Positions 17,863-25,785 of a stretch of DNA of 28,259 bases are shown piece after piece. Position 1 is the first letter of the stretch. Each line of letters starts with the position of its first letter. This DNA is from Thermodesulfobacteriota bacterium (lineage in GTDB: Bacteria; Desulfobacterota; QYQD01), in the NCBI GenBank assembly GCA_030017815.1, contig JASEGX010000002.1, positions 1 through 28,259 of the forward strand, read 5' to 3'. Both the position numbers and the translations under genes were made by a program. The notes below the pieces were generated by a model, which saw only the letters and a program-made list of their open reading frames with translations, was not told where the DNA came from and did not search any database.

Positions 17863-19113
17863 ATTAGCACACCCTCATGCAATAAGTGCGGGACGTGCAT
17901 GAGTGTCTGTCCCGTTTACCAGGCAACAGGGCTGGAGGCCTATTCCCCCCGGGGCAAATTAAGCCTTATCGAGGCCAACCGGGAAGGCCGGTTACCGTTT
18001 TCCGACCGCTTTGAAGAATTGCTCTCCTACTGTCTTCTTTGCGGGGCCTGTACGAATGCCTGTCCCGCCGGGGTAAATGCGGATGTCTCCATACAGGAAG
18101 CGCGGGCAAGGTTGGTCGAAGAGAAGGGACTCCCGGCGGGGAAGCGATACTTTTTTCATTACCTTCTGGATTCTGAGCGCCTTTTGCCCTTTATATTAAA
18201 AAGCGGTTCCCTGATCCAGGGCCTCCTTTGCAAAAGAATCCCGGAAGACAGCGGCCTTCATTGTCGATTTCCGATCCCTCTGTTGGCCGGAAGGTCATGG
18301 CTGCCGCCATTGGCGCCGACCTTTTTTCTGGATAATGACCTGCCCCAGGAAACAAGCGCCCCGGCTAAGGCAGCTTACTTTACAGGATGCATCACAAATT
18401 ATCTCTTTCCTAACGTAGGTAAGGCTGTCCTGAATATTTTTGACTTTCTCGGAGAGCCTGTATGGGCGCCCAAGAAGCAGAAATGCTGTGGGTTCCCGGC
18501 CTTTTGTGCCGGGGATGAAGAGACGGCGCGTTCCCTGGCACGGGCCAATATCTCGGCATTCCTGGATGGCCGGTTCGATTACATCGTTACGACCTGTGCC
18601 TCCTGCAGCTCCCATCTAAGATTTAATTATCCCAGGCTTCTGGCCGCCGACCCGGTCTTTGCAGAAAAAGCGGCGGAATTTTCGGCAAAAGTGATGGATA
18701 TATCGGTTTTTTTATCCCATAACAAGGGATTTCCCCGGCAGTTATCGGATCTCACGCCGAAAACCGGCAGCCTGAAGGTGACGTATCATGATCCCTGCCA
18801 TTTTCGGTTTAGAGAAAAGATATTCGAGGAGCCGCGTCTGCTCATCAAGTCGCTGCCCGGAGTTGATTTTCGCGAACCGGCCGGCGGAGCTGCGTGTTGC
18901 GGACATGGCGGGTTGTTTAATATAACCCATTATGACCTGTCCCAGGAGATTCTTGATAAAAGGATGGCTGTGTTAAGAGACACGGGAGCAGATATCTTAG
19001 TTACCAGTTGCATGGGCTGTCTGTTACAGTGGAAGGAGGGTCTGGTTAGGCATGGGCTTAATGCACAGGCCATGCATCTGGTAGAGTTATTCGATATTTT
19101 TTTGTCAAAATGA
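17863..19113 (+). CDS. GlcF/GlpC-like (Fe-S)-binding oxidoreductase subunit, 2x[4Fe-4S] plus two CCG domains
   Basis: CNKCGTCMSVCP (starts upstream of ATG 17899), CLLCGACTNACP, CCGFP, YHDPCH, CCGHGG. Start placed at ATT 17863 after AGGAGG. Confidence 0.85.
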   Translation: MSTPSCNKCGTCMSVCPVYQATGLEAYSPRGKLSLIEANREGRLPFSDRFEELLSYCLLCGACTNACPAGVNADVSIQEARARLVEEKGLPAGKRYFFHYLLDSERLLPFILKSGSLIQGLLCKRIPEDSGLHCRFPIPLLAGRSWLPPLAPTFFLDNDLPQETSAPAKAAYFTGCITNYLFPNVGKAVLNIFDFLGEPVWAPKKQKCCGFPAFCAGDEETARSLARANISAFLDGRFDYIVTTCASCSSHLRFNYPRLLAADPVFAEKAAEFSAKVMDISVFLSHNKGFPRQLSDLTPKTGSLKVTYHDPCHFRFREKIFEEPRLLIKSLPGVDFREPAGGAACCGHGGLFNITHYDLSQEILDKRMAVLRDTGADILVTSCMGCLLQWKEGLVRHGLNAQAMHLVELFDIFLSK

Positions 19114-19403: not shown

Positions 19404-19455
19404 GTTCTGTAGTTAATATTTTAGCAATAAGTTATTGTTAGTCAGGAGGAAAGAG

Positions 19456-19836
19456 ATGAAAAACAGGGGCATTCTGCTGATGATAGTCATGGCTGTTTTT
19501 ATAATAGCTACTTGTGCTTACGCCCAGGAAGAAGTGCTGAAACTGGAGCATAAGGCCTTTGAAAAACGACAGAGGCCGGGCGTGACATTCCAGCATGCCC
19601 AACACTTTGCTACCATTGAGTGTACGGCGTGCCATCATTTTTATGTAAACGGACAGAACGTCTGGGATGAGTCGCGGGAAACGAATTGTGCGGCCTGCCA
19701 TGGCTTGGAGGCCGAAGGTAAGAAAATGGGCCTTATGAAGGCGTTTCACGAGAACTGCGTGGGTTGTCACCGGGAGACCAAACCGGCAGCAGGCAAGTCA
19801 CTCCCGGTGATGTGTGGCGAATGCCACAAAAAATAA
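19456..19836 (+). CDS. Periplasmic tetraheme cytochrome c3 (class III)
   Basis: Sec signal peptide (AYA|QEE), four CxxCH (CTACH, CAACH, CVGCH, CGECH), VTFQHAQH and KAFH distal His motifs; AGGAGG RBS. Confidence 0.92.
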   Translation: MKNRGILLMIVMAVFIIATCAYAQEEVLKLEHKAFEKRQRPGVTFQHAQHFATIECTACHHFYVNGQNVWDESRETNCAACHGLEAEGKKMGLMKAFHENCVGCHRETKPAAGKSLPVMCGECHKK

Positions 19837-19971: not shown

Positions 19972-21267
19972 ATGAGCCCAGGTAGCTTTTCTGGCGGTAT
20001 TTGCTTGTCTATTTCAGACGCAAGCGCAAACAAACCCTTCGAACGTATCATCCCCTCCGGTGTTGTAACTATCCCTCTCAGGCAGGATCTCGGCGGAATT
20101 TGCAATGCCAAGGTCAAAAAGGGTGATGAGGTCAAGGTCGGACAGGTAATCGGTGAAAGCGCCGGTCCGGAAGGCGCCTCTATCCATGCCACGGTTTCCG
20201 GTAAAGTAGCCGATGTAATAAAGGCCTATCCCCATTTTTCAGGGGGATTCGTCCCGGCTGTGCTCATAGAATCCGATGGCAAGGATGAGTGGGTGGGACT
20301 GGAGGGCAGCGCAGACCCAATGGCCGCCATACAACAGGCGGGAATTATTGATTTTGATATAAAGCCGGTACCGCTTGCAGCCAAGCTCAACGAGGCAAAG
20401 TCTCGCCGGGCTAACGCCCTTATTGTGAATGCCATGGACATAGAGCCGGTACTCTCGAGCCGGTCACGTCTGTTGTCTGAAAGGGTTCAGGAAGTGGCCT
20501 GCGGGATAGACACTATAAAAAGCATAATCGGCGCAGCATCGGTGTATGTTGCCGTCGATAAAGGTGCGTCTCAGGCTATGTCCGCTGTCGGTTCCGCCTG
20601 CGGTGGCGCGGCTACCGTAGTGGGGTTGAACCCTAAGTATCCCCAGGCTGTTGACCTCTTACTGGTAAAGTCGATACTGGGTAAGGAGGTGCCCTGTACA
20701 GAGGCCTATTGTGTGGCCGATATAGGCGCCCTGGTCCTGAGTGTCGAGACAGTGGCGGCGGTGGGCCGGGCTATGGCGGATAAAAAGCCGGTGGTGGACA
20801 GGTTCATAACCATTACCGGCGCCAACGGGACCGGCGCCAAAAATGTCCAGGTAAGGATAGGCACGACGATTAAGGAAGTTCTGGGGCATTGTGGAATTTC
20901 CGTGGAAGGGATGGGCAAGGTTATAGCCGGCGGCCCCATGATGGGCACGGCCATCGCCAATACCGAGACGCCGGTGACCAAAGAGGTGCTGGGTATCTTT
21001 GTCCAGCATGAGAAAGAGATTACCGGGTTCGACTCGGCTGTCTGTATCAAATGCGGGTTATGTATCGAGGTGTGTCCGGTAGGCCTGATGCCGTTCCTTA
21101 TTTCCGGCTTTTCGGAAAAAGGGGTATATGCCAAGGCTGCGGCCAACGATATATTTACATGCTTTGAATGTGGATGCTGTGTCTACGTGTGCCCGGTAAT
21201 GATACCAATGGTGCACTGGATAAAATTTGGCAAGGCACAAATTATGGCGCAAAGGAGTAGCGAATGA
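19972..21267 (+). CDS. rnfC: RnfC-like subunit with degenerate FMN/NAD motifs
   Basis: FSGGI, VKKGDEVKVGQVIG..IHATVSGKV, KYPQ, GGPMMG, CIKCGLCIEVCP and CFECGCCVYVCP. Confidence 0.9.
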   Translation: MSPGSFSGGICLSISDASANKPFERIIPSGVVTIPLRQDLGGICNAKVKKGDEVKVGQVIGESAGPEGASIHATVSGKVADVIKAYPHFSGGFVPAVLIESDGKDEWVGLEGSADPMAAIQQAGIIDFDIKPVPLAAKLNEAKSRRANALIVNAMDIEPVLSSRSRLLSERVQEVACGIDTIKSIIGAASVYVAVDKGASQAMSAVGSACGGAATVVGLNPKYPQAVDLLLVKSILGKEVPCTEAYCVADIGALVLSVETVAAVGRAMADKKPVVDRFITITGANGTGAKNVQVRIGTTIKEVLGHCGISVEGMGKVIAGGPMMGTAIANTETPVTKEVLGIFVQHEKEITGFDSAVCIKCGLCIEVCPVGLMPFLISGFSEKGVYAKAAANDIFTCFECGCCVYVCPVMIPMVHWIKFGKAQIMAQRSSE

Positions 21268-22232
21268 AAGCCCCGGAACTTGTCGTATCTGCTACGCCGC
21301 ATATCCATAGCGGCAACTCCGTTCAAAAGATGATGCTGAACATAATCATCGCCCTGATCCCGGCGATAGCTGCGGGGGTATATTTTTATGGTATGGGCGC
21401 GGTGCGGGTTGTCGCTGTCTCAGTGCTCTCAGCCGTGGCCTGGCAGGCTATCTTACAAAAGATGATGGGGAGGAAGGTTACCATCAATGACCTGACCGCT
21501 GTGGTAAGTGGTCTCGTCTTGGCTGCCATCCTTTCGCCCACGCTGCCGTGGTGGATGATCGTGATCGCTACCTTGATTATGATCCTTCTTGGGAAAGAGA
21601 TTTACGGCGGGCTGGGCTGTAACCCGTTTAACGGTGTCTTGGTGGCTTACGTGGCATTAAGGTTGTCTTATCCGGAGGCCATGATTGCCTGGACGCCGCC
21701 GGCCGGTGATATAATGACCGAGCTGCCCCCCCTCCAGGTCTTGAGGGATGAAGGGGTCGGGGTTATCTGGGAATACTTTACTTTGAAAGACCTGCTCATT
21801 GGTAAGGTAGCCGGTACCGCAGGTGAAGGGTGCAAGATCGCTCTTCTGATAGGAGGTCTTTTCCTCCTCTTGAGGCGTAACTTTTCCTGGCATATTCCGG
21901 TCAGCTTTCTGGCAGGTATCGCAATCCTCTCAGGGATTCTGTGGCTGGCTGATCCAGAGAAATATGCCAGTCCGGTCTTTCATCTCCTGGTTGGCGGTAG
22001 TTTCCTGGCGGCCTTTTTTCTGGCTACCGATTCCACTACCTCACCGGTTACACCAATTGCTATGGTACTATATGGATTGATAGCCGGAATGCTTACGGTG
22101 GTTATACGGGCCTGGGCCCAATGGGAGGATGGGGCCTACTTTGCGGTCCTTATGATCAGTACATTAACTCCGCTTTTAGATATGATCAAACCAAGAGTCT
22201 ATGGGAGGGTGAAGGCCAGTGCAAGTTCGTGA
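21264..22232 (+). CDS. rnfD: RnfD subunit, FMN-attachment Thr apparently absent
   Basis: SATPHIH, GKEIYGGLGCNPFN, AAFFLATDSTTSP; hydrophobic, about 10 TM. Confidence 0.92.
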   Translation: MKAPELVVSATPHIHSGNSVQKMMLNIIIALIPAIAAGVYFYGMGAVRVVAVSVLSAVAWQAILQKMMGRKVTINDLTAVVSGLVLAAILSPTLPWWMIVIATLIMILLGKEIYGGLGCNPFNGVLVAYVALRLSYPEAMIAWTPPAGDIMTELPPLQVLRDEGVGVIWEYFTLKDLLIGKVAGTAGEGCKIALLIGGLFLLLRRNFSWHIPVSFLAGIAILSGILWLADPEKYASPVFHLLVGGSFLAAFFLATDSTTSPVTPIAMVLYGLIAGMLTVVIRAWAQWEDGAYFAVLMISTLTPLLDMIKPRVYGRVKASASS

Positions 22233-22806
22233 AATCATTAAGATGATTGTGGTTTTGACGCTCATTGCCGCTGTCTGCGGAGGGGGACTGTCGCTTGTCA
22301 AACTAGCTACAGCGGAACAAATTGCCTATCAGCAGATAAAATTCATCAAGGAGCCTGCCTTGAAGAAGGTGCTCACCGGTTATGACAATGACCCCGTCAC
22401 AGACCGGAAGGACATCGTAACCGGCAAGGACAAGAAGGGTAAGGACGTAGTAACCACCTTCTTTTTTGCCAAAAAAGGTGGTCAGGTTATCACCGTTGCC
22501 TTTGAAGCCAGCGCTACCGGATTTCATGGCGATATCGGCGTAATGATGGCCGTTAACCCTGAGATTGACAAGCTGGATGGAATAGCCATTACCTCCCAGT
22601 CCGAGACGCCGGGTGTGGGCACCAGGGTAGCGGATGACCCATCCTTCTGCGCCCAGTTCAAGGACAAGTCCTTAACGGCTAATTTCAGCCTTGGGGGCGA
22701 GGTTCAGGGGCTGAGCGGGGCTACGGTATCCTCGGCCGGTGTAAGCAACGCGGTAAAGGCTGGTGTGGAGACTTACAAGAAATATAAATCCCAGTTGGGC
22801 GTATAA
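22219..22806 (+). CDS. rnfG: RnfG subunit (covalent FMN)
   Basis: N-terminal TM, GFHGDIGVMMAV, ETPGVG, LSGATVSS FMN motif. Confidence 0.92.
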   Translation: MQVREIIKMIVVLTLIAAVCGGGLSLVKLATAEQIAYQQIKFIKEPALKKVLTGYDNDPVTDRKDIVTGKDKKGKDVVTTFFFAKKGGQVITVAFEASATGFHGDIGVMMAVNPEIDKLDGIAITSQSETPGVGTRVADDPSFCAQFKDKSLTANFSLGGEVQGLSGATVSSAGVSNAVKAGVETYKKYKSQLGV

Positions 22807-22823
22807 AATTGAGGAGGTTTGTA

Positions 22824-23429
22824 ATGGCGCGCATTGTCAGTGAATTCACCAAGGGCCTCTGGAAGGAGATCCCTCCCTTCCGTTTCGTCCTCGGCCTGTG
22901 TTCGGCTCTGGCTGTGACTACGGACGTGGCCAATGGTCTAGGTCTGGGGGGCGGGGTCATTTTTGTGACCACCATGGGGAACGTCTTTGTCTCCATGCTG
23001 CGCAAGATTATACCGGATAAGGTGAGGATAGCGGTCTTTATTGCCATCATTGCCAGCGCGGTCATCATAGTGGAGCTGGTGATGCAGGCCTATTTCTATC
23101 CGCTTTTCCTGGTGCTCGGTATCTGGATACCCCTTATCGTAGTTAACTGAGTGCCTCTGGGACGGGCGGAGGCCTTCGCCCGCAAAGAGCCGGTCGGGCT
23201 CTCTTTAGCTGATGGATTAGGAATGGGGTTAGGATTTACCATATCATTGGTTGTGGTATCGACCATTCGGGAGATACTGGGTAAGGGTTCCTGGTTCGGG
23301 ATTCCGGTTATGCCGGTGGGTTATCCGGGCATGCCGTACCTTCTTAAGCCGCCGGGGGCCTTTGCCTTGTTGGGCCTGCTGCTCGGCATTATGAACTTTA
23401 TTTCCTTAAAGCTGGAAGCCAAGAAGTAG
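22824..23429 (+). CDS. rnfE: RnfE subunit, 201 aa with in-frame TGA at codon 109 (predicted selenocysteine)
   Basis: ORFs 22809-23150 and 23151-23429 are in frame and join as IPLIVVN-[TGA]-VPLGRAEAFA; LGLCSALAVTT, DGLGMGLGFT, PPGAF; GAGGAGG RBS before ATG 22824. Confidence 0.88.
23151..23190 (+). ncRNA. Candidate bacterial SECIS element (cis-acting mRNA hairpin)
   Basis: 7-bp stem GGGCGGA/TTCGCCC (23164-23181) with GGCC loop; loop starts 20 nt after the UGA and begins with G; possible lower stem CTCT/AGAG. Confidence 0.7.
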
Positions 23430-23450: not shown

Positions 23451-24029
23451 ATGCAACAAGACTGGTTCATGTTTATCCTGTCGGCTATTATCGTTAACAA
23501 CATCCTCCTGATAAGGTTCCTGGGAAACTGTCCCTTCCTGGGGGTTACCACGGCCATGGACAGCGCCCTCGGCATGTCCGCGGCCTGTATTTTTGTGAAT
23601 GTTCTTTCCGGCGTTCTCTGCTGGATATTTCAGAAGGCGGTACTGGATACCCTGGGTCTGGAATACCTGCAGACGCTGGCCTTTATTCTGATCATTGCCG
23701 GCCTGGTCCAGTTCGTGGAGATGGTGGTTCAGAAGGTATCACCGGCGCTTTACCGGGCCCTGGGTATCTACCTGCCGCTTATAACCACCAACTGCATGAT
23801 CTTTGGCGTGGCCGTGTTAAACATCCGGGAGGATCATGATTTTATACATACAGTTGTTTATTCTCTGGCCACCGCCCTTGGGTTTAGTCTGGCTATGGTG
23901 ATCATGGCCGGTATCCGGGAAAGGATGCTCATTGCCAGGATACCCAAGCTTCTGGATGGGGTACCACTGGGTTTAATCACGGCCGGCATGATAGGTCTTA
24001 CCTTTTATGCCTTGGCCGGCATATCTTAA
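23451..24029 (+). CDS. rnfA: RnfA subunit
   Basis: NNILLIRFLGNCPFLG, ALGIYLPLITTNCMIFG, MAGIRER; both cluster cysteines present. Confidence 0.95.
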   Translation: MQQDWFMFILSAIIVNNILLIRFLGNCPFLGVTTAMDSALGMSAACIFVNVLSGVLCWIFQKAVLDTLGLEYLQTLAFILIIAGLVQFVEMVVQKVSPALYRALGIYLPLITTNCMIFGVAVLNIREDHDFIHTVVYSLATALGFSLAMVIMAGIRERMLIARIPKLLDGVPLGLITAGMIGLTFYALAGIS

Positions 24030-24053: not shown

Positions 24054-24860
24054 ATGGGACCGATAATCACAGCAGTGGCGGCTATGGGGGCCTTAGGATT
24101 GGGGCTGAGCGTTGTGCTTGGTGTGGCCAGTAAGGTTTTTTACGTCTATGTTGACCCGCGCATTACCCAAGTAGCCGACGTGCTGCCGGGCGCCAATTGT
24201 GGCGGCTGCGGCTACGCCGGTTGTAGCGACTGTGCGGCGGCTATGGTGGAAGGCAAAGCGCCGGTTAACGCCTGCAAGGCTGGCGGGGCCTCGGTGGCCC
24301 AGGCAGTAGCCGGTGTGCTGGGTGTCTCGGCCGTGGCGGCAGAGCGCGAGGTGGCCAGGATCTTCTGTAAAGGTGACAATACCAGGGCCGAAAGAAAGTT
24401 CCAATACATGGGTATTAATGATTGCCGGGCTGCCATGCTGGTCTCCAGCGGTGACAAATCGTGTGGTTACGGGTGCCTGGGGCTTGGCACCTGCGTAGCC
24501 AATTGTCCGTTTGGGGCCCTTAGCATGGGTGAAGATGGCCTGCCCAGGGTAGATGATGAAAAATGTACGGCTTGCGGGACATGTGTTAAGGTTTGCCCGC
24601 GGCATATTCCCCGGGTGATCCCAGTATCGCAGAAAGCGGCCAGCCTGTGCAGCTCGCATGATGTTGGTAAGCTGGTCAAGGAGATCTGTGAGGCCGGCTG
24701 TCTGGGATGCGGCTTGTGTAAAAAGGCGTGTCCGGAAAAGGCGATTGAGGTGGTGAAGTTTCTTTCCGTTGTAGATACTGCCAAGTGCAATGGTTGCGGG
24801 AAGTGCTTTGAGAAATGCCCGACCGGCATTATGCAGAGCTTGGTTTTCACTGTAGTATAA
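24054..24860 (+). CDS. rnfB: RnfB subunit (polyferredoxin)
   Basis: LPGANCGGCGYAGC, GCLGLGTCVANCPF, CTACGTCVKVCP, CLGCGLCKKACP, CNGCGKCFEKCP. Confidence 0.95.
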   Translation: MGPIITAVAAMGALGLGLSVVLGVASKVFYVYVDPRITQVADVLPGANCGGCGYAGCSDCAAAMVEGKAPVNACKAGGASVAQAVAGVLGVSAVAAEREVARIFCKGDNTRAERKFQYMGINDCRAAMLVSSGDKSCGYGCLGLGTCVANCPFGALSMGEDGLPRVDDEKCTACGTCVKVCPRHIPRVIPVSQKAASLCSSHDVGKLVKEICEAGCLGCGLCKKACPEKAIEVVKFLSVVDTAKCNGCGKCFEKCPTGIMQSLVFTVV

Positions 24861-24871
24861 GGAGGCGTTGA

Positions 24872-25348
24872 ATGTCTCAAAAGATATTGATAGCTATGGA
24901 TGAGTCTGAGAATTCGATGAAGGCGGTGCGGTATGTGGCTGACACCGTGAACCCAAAGGCCGTAGAGGTAACCCTGTTCAGTGTGCTTCCGGAGGCTCCC
25001 GGCACTGGCCTGGAAAAGGAACCCTCGCTGCATCCCGTATTTGCCAGTAAGATGCTGGAGTTAAAGGGGCTGACGGAAGAGAAGCGTAAGATAATGGAAT
25101 CCGTTACGGCTTCGGCCAGGAAAATTCTGGAGAAAGCAGGGATCCCGGGCGATAAAATAAGCATTAATATCCAGGTAAAGAAGGTCGGTATAGCCAGGGA
25201 CATTATGTTTGAGGCCCAGGAAGGAAAGTATAATGCCATAGTTGTCGGGCGAAGGGGTGTTTCTGCAATAAAGGAATTTATGTTCGGTAGCATTTCGAAC
25301 AAGGTGGTAAGCTTTGCACGAAACTGTACGGTCTGGGTTGTGGATTGA
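24872..25348 (+). CDS. Universal stress protein (single domain)
   Basis: KILIAMDESENS, IVVGRRGVSAIKEFMFGSISNKVV. Confidence 0.9.
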   Translation: MSQKILIAMDESENSMKAVRYVADTVNPKAVEVTLFSVLPEAPGTGLEKEPSLHPVFASKMLELKGLTEEKRKIMESVTASARKILEKAGIPGDKISINIQVKKVGIARDIMFEAQEGKYNAIVVGRRGVSAIKEFMFGSISNKVVSFARNCTVWVVD

Positions 25349-25350
25349 GG

Positions 25351-25785
25351 ATGGCCCATATCCGCGAAGAAGAAGGGGAAGTAATTGCCGTTGAAGGCAA
25401 CCAGGCTAAGGTTAGGATCAGACGCAGCCCGGCCTGTGACAGTTGTTCAAGCAGCAGCAGTTGTGGTTTACTTGGTAAAGGTGAGATGGTGCTAACTGCA
25501 TTAAATCCAATAGGGGCTTCGGAAGGGCAAAAGGTGGACGTTTCGTTCAAGGTTGAGGGAGGGGTCAAGGCCTCTTTTATTCTGTACCTAATTCCCGTGG
25601 TTGGCCTGGTAGCAGGGGCATTAATCGGCTATAGCTTGCATTTATTTGGTGATAAGGAGATTTCAGCGGCCGTCTTTAGTCTGTTGTTTGTGGCGCTTAC
25701 TTTTCTTGGCATCAAATATTATGCGCACATCAGATATGCCAAGGATCAATCTTACATCCCAAAGATTACAAAGGTAGTGGCTTAA
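25351..25785 (+). CDS. rseC: RseC/MucC family membrane protein
   Basis: EGEVIAV..AKV, CDSCSSSSSCG, GQKVDV, ILYLIP, two C-terminal TM helices. Confidence 0.85.
   Translation: MAHIREEEGEVIAVEGNQAKVRIRRSPACDSCSSSSSCGLLGKGEMVLTALNPIGASEGQKVDVSFKVEGGVKASFILYLIPVVGLVAGALIGYSLHLFGDKEISAAVFSLLFVALTFLGIKYYAHIRYAKDQSYIPKITKVVA

Follow-up and report, generated by a model that had tools for sequence, protein, structure and literature searches.

An in-frame TGA in rnfE of a Thermodesulfobacteriota bacterium

Contig JASEGX010000002.1 of a Thermodesulfobacteriota bacterium (assembly GCA_030017815.1), of which the first 28,259 nucleotides (nt) were analyzed and are referred to here as the window, carries an rnf operon in which the gene for the membrane subunit RnfE contains an in-frame TGA. 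A reading of the window made from the letters alone (the sequence-only reading) had proposed that this codon specifies selenocysteine (Sec) at a ligand of the membrane-embedded [2Fe-2S] cluster. The features of the gene are as follows.

22811-22817, + strand: Shine-Dalgarno sequence GAGGAGG of rnfE, read from the sequence; sole ribosome-binding site for the gene
22824-23429, + strand: rnfE, 201 codons plus a TAG stop; one frame, with the TGA at codon 109 predicted to be read as Sec
22899-22901, + strand: TGT codon for Cys26, the first of the two [2Fe-2S] ligands in RnfE; aligns with C25 in the LG.C motif of Acetobacterium woodii RnfE
23148-23150, + strand: UGA codon 109, predicted Sec; the second of the RnfE ligands of AE1, the intramembrane [2Fe-2S] cluster
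23163-23182, + strand: predicted selenocysteine insertion sequence (SECIS) hairpin; 23163-23170 and 23175-23182 form a stem of 8 bp around the loop GGCC (23171-23174)

The lone in-frame TGA of rnfE, at 23148-23150, is codon 109 and lies within PLIVVN-U-VPLGRAEAFA. As had been described, the two halves of the open reading frame are contiguous and in phase, giving a single frame of 201 codons with one TGA, and no Shine-Dalgarno sequence comparable to that of the gene precedes the second half at 23151. Directly after the TGA, the window has GTG and three of the genus's five species have ATA; across these three and the other lineages with this form of RnfE (Sec-RnfE), the codon is ATA, ATT, ATC, AAC, or GTC and thus not a start. 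The product matches NF009070 (RsxE/RnfE) over its full length with 233 bits (cut-off, 184), scores 206 bits against TIGR01948, slightly below the cut-off of 213, and contains PF02508 (E = 3e-59). The gene is the only rnfE in the genome, it lies in an rnfCDGEAB operon, and its product has both cluster-ligand positions, Cys26 and position 109, at which Sec, chemically competent as a ligand, would stand in place of Cys.

The TGA position aligns with a ligand of the intramembrane cluster

To our knowledge, the [2Fe-2S] center of RnfA/E (and of NqrD/E) is the sole known Fe-S center buried mid-membrane. When the window protein is compared with Protein Data Bank chains by phmmer, codon 109 falls on Cys108 of A. 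woodii RnfE (9ERI, chain 9eri_E) and on Cys109 of Clostridium tetanomorphum RnfE (7ZC6, chain 7zc6_E), and the conserved Cys of the PLIVVNC motif is the residue replaced, as the sequence-only reading had placed it. By this alignment, the TGA site is homologous to a cluster ligand cysteine. Kumar et al. (2025; PMC11889175) give RnfA C25 and C113 together with RnfE C25 and C108 as the ligands of the AE1 [2Fe-2S] cluster, in agreement with the earlier statement that RnfA and RnfE supply two cysteines each, and a 2025 review of Rnf and Nqr presents the same ligand picture. Mutation of the AE1 ligand cysteines in A. woodii abolishes growth and activity (PMC11889175), and in current models reduction of the cluster attracts the coupling ion and flips the subunits inward or outward (PMC11889175, PMC12174285). 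The remaining three ligands, RnfE Cys26 (LGLC), RnfA Cys27 (GNCP), and RnfA Cys115 (TTNC), are intact in the window, again as reported before. They are Cys in all Sec-RnfE operons, so the predicted coordination is by three sulfurs and one selenium.

Conservation of the TGA and selection on the downstream frame

TGA occupies the same column in four other species of the genus (g1), whose genes share 92 to 96% protein and 85 to 92% nucleotide identity with that of the window, and in two further metagenome contigs of the genus; each of the 64 distinct Cys-form sequences that were scored has TGC or TGT in that column. Three separate studies, one of sediment and two of groundwater, supplied Logan contigs across the site; these show no variant at 23148-23150 or in the hairpin, although their flanks differ, so the TGA is retained in independent assemblies. 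With five species and the contigs of three studies carrying it, sequencing error is ruled out.

An untranslated region left behind by a nonsense mutation drifts toward a ratio of nonsynonymous to synonymous substitution rates (dN/dS) of about 1 and gathers stops and frameshifts. Among seven sequences of the genus (Nei-Gojobori method), dN/dS over codons 110 to 201 is 0.00 to 0.10, the same range as over codons 1 to 108, at dS values of up to 0.87, and no frameshift or further stop past the TGA is found in any of the seven.

Selenocysteine machinery and other selenoprotein genes

The genome examined (2.25 Mb, 90% complete) contains a tRNA-Sec gene, selB (364 bits), selA (652 bits), and selD, the presence of which had been put forward as a check on the proposal. 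The selD gene carries one TGA of its own, and in-frame TGAs are also found in two fdhA genes, in two genes of the MvhD/FlpD type, and in the gene for the large subunit of a [NiFeSe] hydrogenase, so that the genome's selenoprotein genes number at least seven. The machinery and these further TGA genes identify the organism as an active Sec user. As TGA closes 405 of 1244 long open frames (33%), the genetic code is not reassigned, and genome-wide recoding of TGA is ruled out as an account of the rnfE codon. In the two MvhD/FlpD-type genes (G000 C206:16309-16677 and C211:26064-26432), the TGA lies in a GG-U-H-x-GECH motif and is followed by near-identical AUUACC(G/A)-loop-(C/U)GGUAAU hairpins.

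A predicted SECIS hairpin downstream of the UGA

The consensus of the bSECISearch model has a UGA-to-loop distance of about 16 to 37 nt, a small loop, and G in the first two loop positions. The window hairpin, with 12 nt from the UGA to an 8-bp stem and 20 nt to the loop GGCC, has this geometry. It is the GGGCGGA/GGCC/TTCGCCC element of the sequence-only reading, to which a flanking C-G pair adds the eighth base pair. Among the seven sequences of the genus, none of the 16 stem sites varies, compared with 52% of third codon positions gene-wide, and the sole change in the 20-nt element turns the loop from GGCC into GGCU. The nearest Cys-form relatives, one species of the same genus and one of a sister genus (81% identity; both with selB), encode an identical GRAEAFAR but use CGT, GCC, and TTT instead of CGG, GCG, and TTC, which breaks the stem; the fixed-register energy is +3.7 kcal/mol in these Cys sisters and -12.5 kcal/mol in the Sec form.

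The SECIS elements of the genome's selD, fdhA, NiFeSe hydrogenase, and flpD genes have stems of 6 to 9 bp that start 12 to 19 nt after the UGA and G-initial loops of 3 to 5 nt (GGG, GGC, GGUCU, GUGUU, GUC, GUU). Of 13 distinct Sec sequences, 12 pair without a break over 7 bp or more in register (mean, -10.0 kcal/mol), G is found in the first two positions of every Sec-form loop, and in an alignment of 14 Sec forms in-register pairing fills 88% of cells, against 37 to 57% when the 3' arm is slid.

Recurrence of the TGA across lineages

The degenerate pattern I-x-x-N-TGA-x-x-[LMI]-[GA]-R-x-E-x-[FY]-A was searched in one genome for each of 185,579 GTDB species and in JGI metagenome contigs. After translation, true hits came from the window genus (Thermodesulfobacteriota metagenome-assembled genomes [MAGs]), a second Thermodesulfobacteriota-like lineage (L082), two Chloroflexota MAGs and two contigs, "Candidatus Geothermocultor quzhuomuensis" (Actinomycetota), and the metagenomic lineages L078 and L081. 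Every Sec form sits in a complete rnfCDGEAB operon, and the carrier genomes outside the genus have selB and tRNA-Sec. The two Chloroflexota RnfE proteins share the TGA at only 65% mutual identity, and their relatives at up to 58% identity have Cys; the TGA of Geothermocultor is a singleton among Cys relatives. A maximum-likelihood tree of 77 RnfE sequences requires five or more Cys/Sec changes, each of them imposed by branches with good support. A sample of 401 genomes of the phylum includes 164 with RnfE, and no further TGA was found in these.

Several other hits were set aside as chance matches to the pattern, namely, L068 and L071, which are non-Rnf frames, and L074 to L077 and L080, which are short open reading frames. 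"Candidatus Hakubella thermalkaliphila" (L072:6735-7200) has the TGA and a GGCU-loop hairpin, but its upstream frame is broken and part of it is masked, its selB and tRNA-Sec matches are partial or borderline, and it is not counted; the gene may be decayed, or it may encode a Sec-RnfE and contain an assembly error.

Two observations concern the carriers themselves. In L078 (1256-1303), a stem of about 9 bp begins right after the UGA (UCAUUCUGG with CCAAGAAUGG) and encloses a small CGAG-loop hairpin, which may be a different SECIS architecture for the RnfE site. The Geothermocultor MAG and one Chloroflexota MAG each have two full-length selB genes (G402 C13:21761-23763 and C6:72818-74964; G403 C149:8567-11780 and C43:1005-3104), and a tRNA-Sec gene lies next to each selB or no more than about 1.3 kb away. 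Duplicated Sec machinery or mixed strains in the bins could account for this.

A possible reason why this ligand is recoded

In Cys-form operons, the 33 nt after the second RnfE cysteine codon fold with a mean of -9.3 kcal/mol, compared with -5.4 kcal/mol after the second RnfA cysteine and -7.6 kcal/mol after the two first-cysteine codons. At SECIS distance, a perfect stem of 6 bp or more with a G-initial loop is found in 32% of cases at the second RnfE cysteine and in 12% and 6% at the others; nominal P values for this comparison are inflated by related genomes. Within the codons for R-A-E-x-F-A, a CGN-GCN-GA arm is complementary to a UUY-GCN arm, and recoding has probably recurred at the second RnfE cysteine because these downstream codons are self-complementary. 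Judged by this codon complementarity, the R-A-E-x-F-A motif is probably a proto-SECIS that eases conversion of Cys to Sec, an idea that offers a testable account of which cysteines become selenocysteines.

The rnf operon of the window genus

The other genes of the operon are as follows; in the window, the rnf gene order is C-D-G-E-A-B.

19435-19836, + strand: class III (c3-type) cytochrome c gene (PF02085, E = 9e-15); heads the operon
19972-21267, + strand: rnfC, NCBIfam match; lacks the GxGGAxFP and NGxECEP motifs
21264-22232, + strand: rnfD, NCBIfam match; lacks the D..T.ATPL motif
22219-22806, + strand: rnfG, NCBIfam match
23451-24029, + strand: rnfA (TIGR01943, 241 bits); Cys27 codon at 23529-23531 (GNCP), Cys115 codon at 23793-23795 (TTNC)
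24054-24860, + strand: rnfB; completes the operon with usp and rseC
24872-25348, + strand: usp, after rnfB
25345-25785, + strand: rseC, end of the operon

In the window RnfC, the NADH and flavin mononucleotide (FMN) motifs, which read GLGGAIFP and NGSECEPY in Azotobacter vinelandii, are replaced by DFDIKPVP and NAMDIEPV, and RnfD of the genus has lost D..T.ATPL, its flavinylation motif. The c3 cytochrome gene is kept upstream of rnfC in metagenome contigs of the genus. The Rnf of the window genus is of the sulfate-reducer type without the NAD site and is unlikely to reduce NAD+. A tie between Sec-RnfE and loss of the NAD site was considered and ruled out, as the operons of Chloroflexota, Geothermocultor, and L078 keep canonical RnfC and/or RnfD motifs. 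What is common to all Sec-form Rnf complexes is the path from RnfB through AE1 to RnfG, which holds the recoded residue.

Just upstream of the cytochrome c3-rnf operon, positions 17899-19113 of the window encode an HdrD/GlpC-like protein with two CCG domains and a 4Fe-4S dicluster domain. In one metagenome contig of the genus (L083:3932-4063), the rnfA match comes in two overlapping pieces, which suggests a frameshift, probably an assembly error.

Interpretation and alternative readings of the UGA

In rnfE, a UGA aligned with the Cys of homologues, a genome with tRNA-Sec, SelA, SelB, and SelD, a downstream hairpin, and coding selection beyond a conserved TGA are found together. On this evidence we consider it highly probable that rnfE is a real, selected selenoprotein gene with a full-length product of 201 residues, and the Sec-RnfE proposal of the sequence-only reading gains from the Sec machinery, from TGA in other genomes, and from its retention in independent assemblies. 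In the mechanism that we envisage, the hairpin 12 nt after UGA109 would act as a bacterial SECIS and recruit SelB-GTP-Sec-tRNA(Sec), so that UGA109 would be decoded as Sec and the chain would continue. Sec109 would then replace the second RnfE cysteine (A. woodii Cys108) and give coordination by three sulfurs and one selenium to the cluster that passes electrons from RnfB to the RnfG flavin and whose reduction is coupled to ion movement. The sequence-only reading had suggested that selenium would retune the redox potential; our best guess at its benefit is either a modest shift in the potential or covalency of the cluster or easier deprotonation and ligation of a selenol in the low-dielectric core of the membrane.

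More tentatively, and with a confidence that falls short of even, we suggest that selenium at one ligand is a repeatedly selected tuning of the redox-coupled ion gate of Rnf, with the choice of site made through the R-A-E-x-F-A proto-SECIS. If so, ion translocation would be driven by electron transfer at a [2Fe-2S] cluster with three sulfurs and one selenium whose potential, covalency, or protonation behavior is changed; the RNA self-complementarity of a peptide motif would channel where selenoproteins evolve; and nature would have supplied a selenium-labeled membrane Fe-S center for 77Se electron paramagnetic resonance, Se-edge spectroscopy, and cryo-electron microscopy of coupling.

Several points weigh against the selenoprotein reading. 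Both Sec insertion at UGA109 and Se-Fe bonding are things that we infer from sequence. An unbroken stem of at least 7 bp is also present in 25% of the 64 Cys forms (mean, -0.6 kcal/mol), so the hairpin alone is not diagnostic. L078 has no in-register hairpin, and that of Geothermocultor is weak and identical to the hairpin of its Cys sister, so its TGA could be a plain nonsense mutation. The sequence-only reading had looked to relatives with TGA in the same column and a covarying hairpin; such relatives exist (five species of the genus, Chloroflexota, Actinomycetota, and metagenomic lineages), but covariation is borne out only in part, with two compensatory pairs, both in L081, and a covariation score reached by 26 of 500 shuffles. 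Covariation is modest because the stem RNA also encodes a conserved peptide, and for the same reason strong covariation proof of a SECIS was not obtained. RNA folding of the stretch after the TGA, another suggested check, gave a negative outcome: the 53-nt stretch, which is rich in GC, has no more fold stability than its shuffled versions (z = -0.63). Folding energy was therefore set aside, and the case for the hairpin rests on the comparative evidence.

Of the other accounts of the UGA, the one that fares best, improbable as we judge it, is read-through without Sec, in which position 109 would be filled by Trp or Cys, at least when selenium is low, through a near-cognate tRNA for either amino acid or through tRNA(Sec) charged with Cys. 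Cys is misincorporated at Sec codons in some systems, and Cys109 would be fully functional. Such read-through would, however, be leaky and inefficient for a core energy-conserving complex, and the hairpin matches the genome's other SECIS elements. Moreover, the TGA was found only in genomes with selB and tRNA-Sec matches (those of Hakubella being partial or borderline), and recurrent change from Cys to TGA at one column is the usual signature of a Cys/Sec pair.

Less probable again is a split gene, in which residues 1 to 108 and a separately initiated C-terminal half are assembled without the ligand residue. The GTG after the window TGA is a possible start, and purifying selection on both halves would fit. 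Yet no Shine-Dalgarno sequence stands before 23151, and in three of the genus's five species and in the other lineages the TGA is followed by a codon that is not a start (ATA, ATT, ATC, AAC, or GTC). A split protein would also lose the cluster ligand, whereas AE1 ligand Cys mutants of A. woodii lose growth and activity (PMC11889175), and the conserved hairpin and the link to the Sec machinery would be left unexplained.

Least credible is a pseudogene, with the TGA a nonsense mutation that inactivates rnfE and the downstream part decaying: annotation pipelines would call two fragments, the Geothermocultor carrier is a singleton among Cys relatives with a hairpin that is not improved, and the Hakubella copy looks broken, but the low downstream dN/dS without frameshifts or extra stops in seven sequences excludes it, and the TGA is kept in five species and in two Chloroflexota at 65% protein identity, with the rest of the operon intact and rnfE single-copy in the genome.

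Comparison with known selenoproteins and Rnf complexes

A selenoprotein of PF02508, "NADH:ubiquinone oxidoreductase subunit E" with a TxxU motif, was recorded in 2005 from one Sargasso Sea sequence and said there to be a candidate already in Kryukov and Gladyshev (2004); it recurs with three Global Ocean Sampling sequences in 2008 and, without an accession, in reviews of 2022 and 2026. Further entries in the catalogues are (2Fe-2S)-binding selenoproteins and NF005503, an Fe-S protein similar to RnfB with a UxxC motif; SaoP is one example of a known membrane selenoprotein; and the 2026 review puts the share of selenoprotein families with predicted metal or Fe-S binding at about one-fifth, mostly as inferred from Cys homologues. 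Novelty is limited to that extent, since the catalogues already contain a PF02508 selenoprotein, selenoproteins of the membrane, and cases of Sec predicted as an Fe-S cluster ligand. In the searched literature, we found no paper linking RnfE, RsxE, or Rnf subunits A/E to selenocysteine; neither the searched catalogues (for BSepDB, its main text) nor the Rnf/Nqr reviews list Rnf, RsxE, or RnfE as a selenoprotein, and selenium goes unmentioned in the 2025 Rnf/Nqr review and the 2025 structure paper. What appears to be new is RnfE as the recoded subunit, Sec at an intramembrane [2Fe-2S] ligand, at least five independent origins, and the proto-SECIS explanation.

In practical terms, a Sec-rnfE gene is otherwise called as two fragments or a pseudogene, so that a complete Rnf looks broken, and the correction affects reconstructions of groundwater and sediment Thermodesulfobacteriota, Chloroflexota, and Actinomycetota. 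The predicted protein would come with a built-in heavy-atom and spin probe and be a natural experiment on how ligand chemistry tunes an ion gate.

Like Sec-RnfE, the catalogued TxxU protein belongs to PF02508 and has a predicted replacement of Cys by Sec in a polytopic membrane subunit. TxxU, however, fits the T-T-N-C ligand of RnfA/NqrE, the pseudo-symmetric counterpart of V-V-N-C in RnfE; it is of the paralogous NqrE/RnfA type (COG2209), whereas the window protein is of the RnfE/NqrD type with the motif V-V-N-U. The window RnfE scores 233 bits against RsxE and only 66 to 73 bits against nqrE/rnfA models, and the rnfA of its operon keeps TTNC. Scores and motif thus make it a sister form outside the catalogued TxxU subfamily. 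At a time when the [2Fe-2S] cluster had yet to be discovered, TxxU was taken for a thiol-redox motif, and a few marine shotgun sequences represented it; for Sec-RnfE, there are complete operons in named genomes, a defined SECIS, the outcome of a selection test, and five or more origins. Genomes, operons, and SECIS elements now stand behind a selenoprotein family that had been catalogued for twenty years without an accession.

As in bacterial SECIS elements of the Escherichia coli fdhF type, the rnfE hairpin lies within the open reading frame just 3' of the UGA and has a small G-bearing apical loop; the loops GGCC, GGCU, and GGUC of Sec-RnfE resemble the fdhF-type GGUC(U), which is also found in fdhA2 of the genome. 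Unlike known elements, the rnfE stem has no evident bulged U and is built wholly from codons of the conserved R-A-E-x-F-A peptide, which implies that a weaker form of it predated recoding.

Among solved structures, the Cys-type RnfE proteins of A. woodii (9ERI) and C. tetanomorphum (7ZC6) match the window protein over the full length (E = 2e-50 and 4e-49, respectively), and the set also includes A. vinelandii Rnf (8AHX), again with a Cys-type RnfE. The solved Rnf complexes, together with NqrD of Vibrio cholerae Nqr (7XK3), share with the window RnfE the two half-helix ligand positions and GRAEAFA. They differ in having Cys at position 108/109, where the window protein has the UGA-encoded, predicted Sec. 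The Rnf of the window genus departs further from the solved complexes in lacking the RnfC NADH/FMN and RnfD flavinylation motifs and in having a c3 cytochrome gene upstream. The catalogued Sec-containing Fe-S proteins resemble Sec-RnfE in that Sec is predicted at or next to a Cys ligand position in electron-transfer proteins of anaerobes; those proteins have soluble or peripheral ferredoxin-like domains, whereas the cluster of Sec-RnfE is an intramembrane [2Fe-2S] center coupled to ion translocation.

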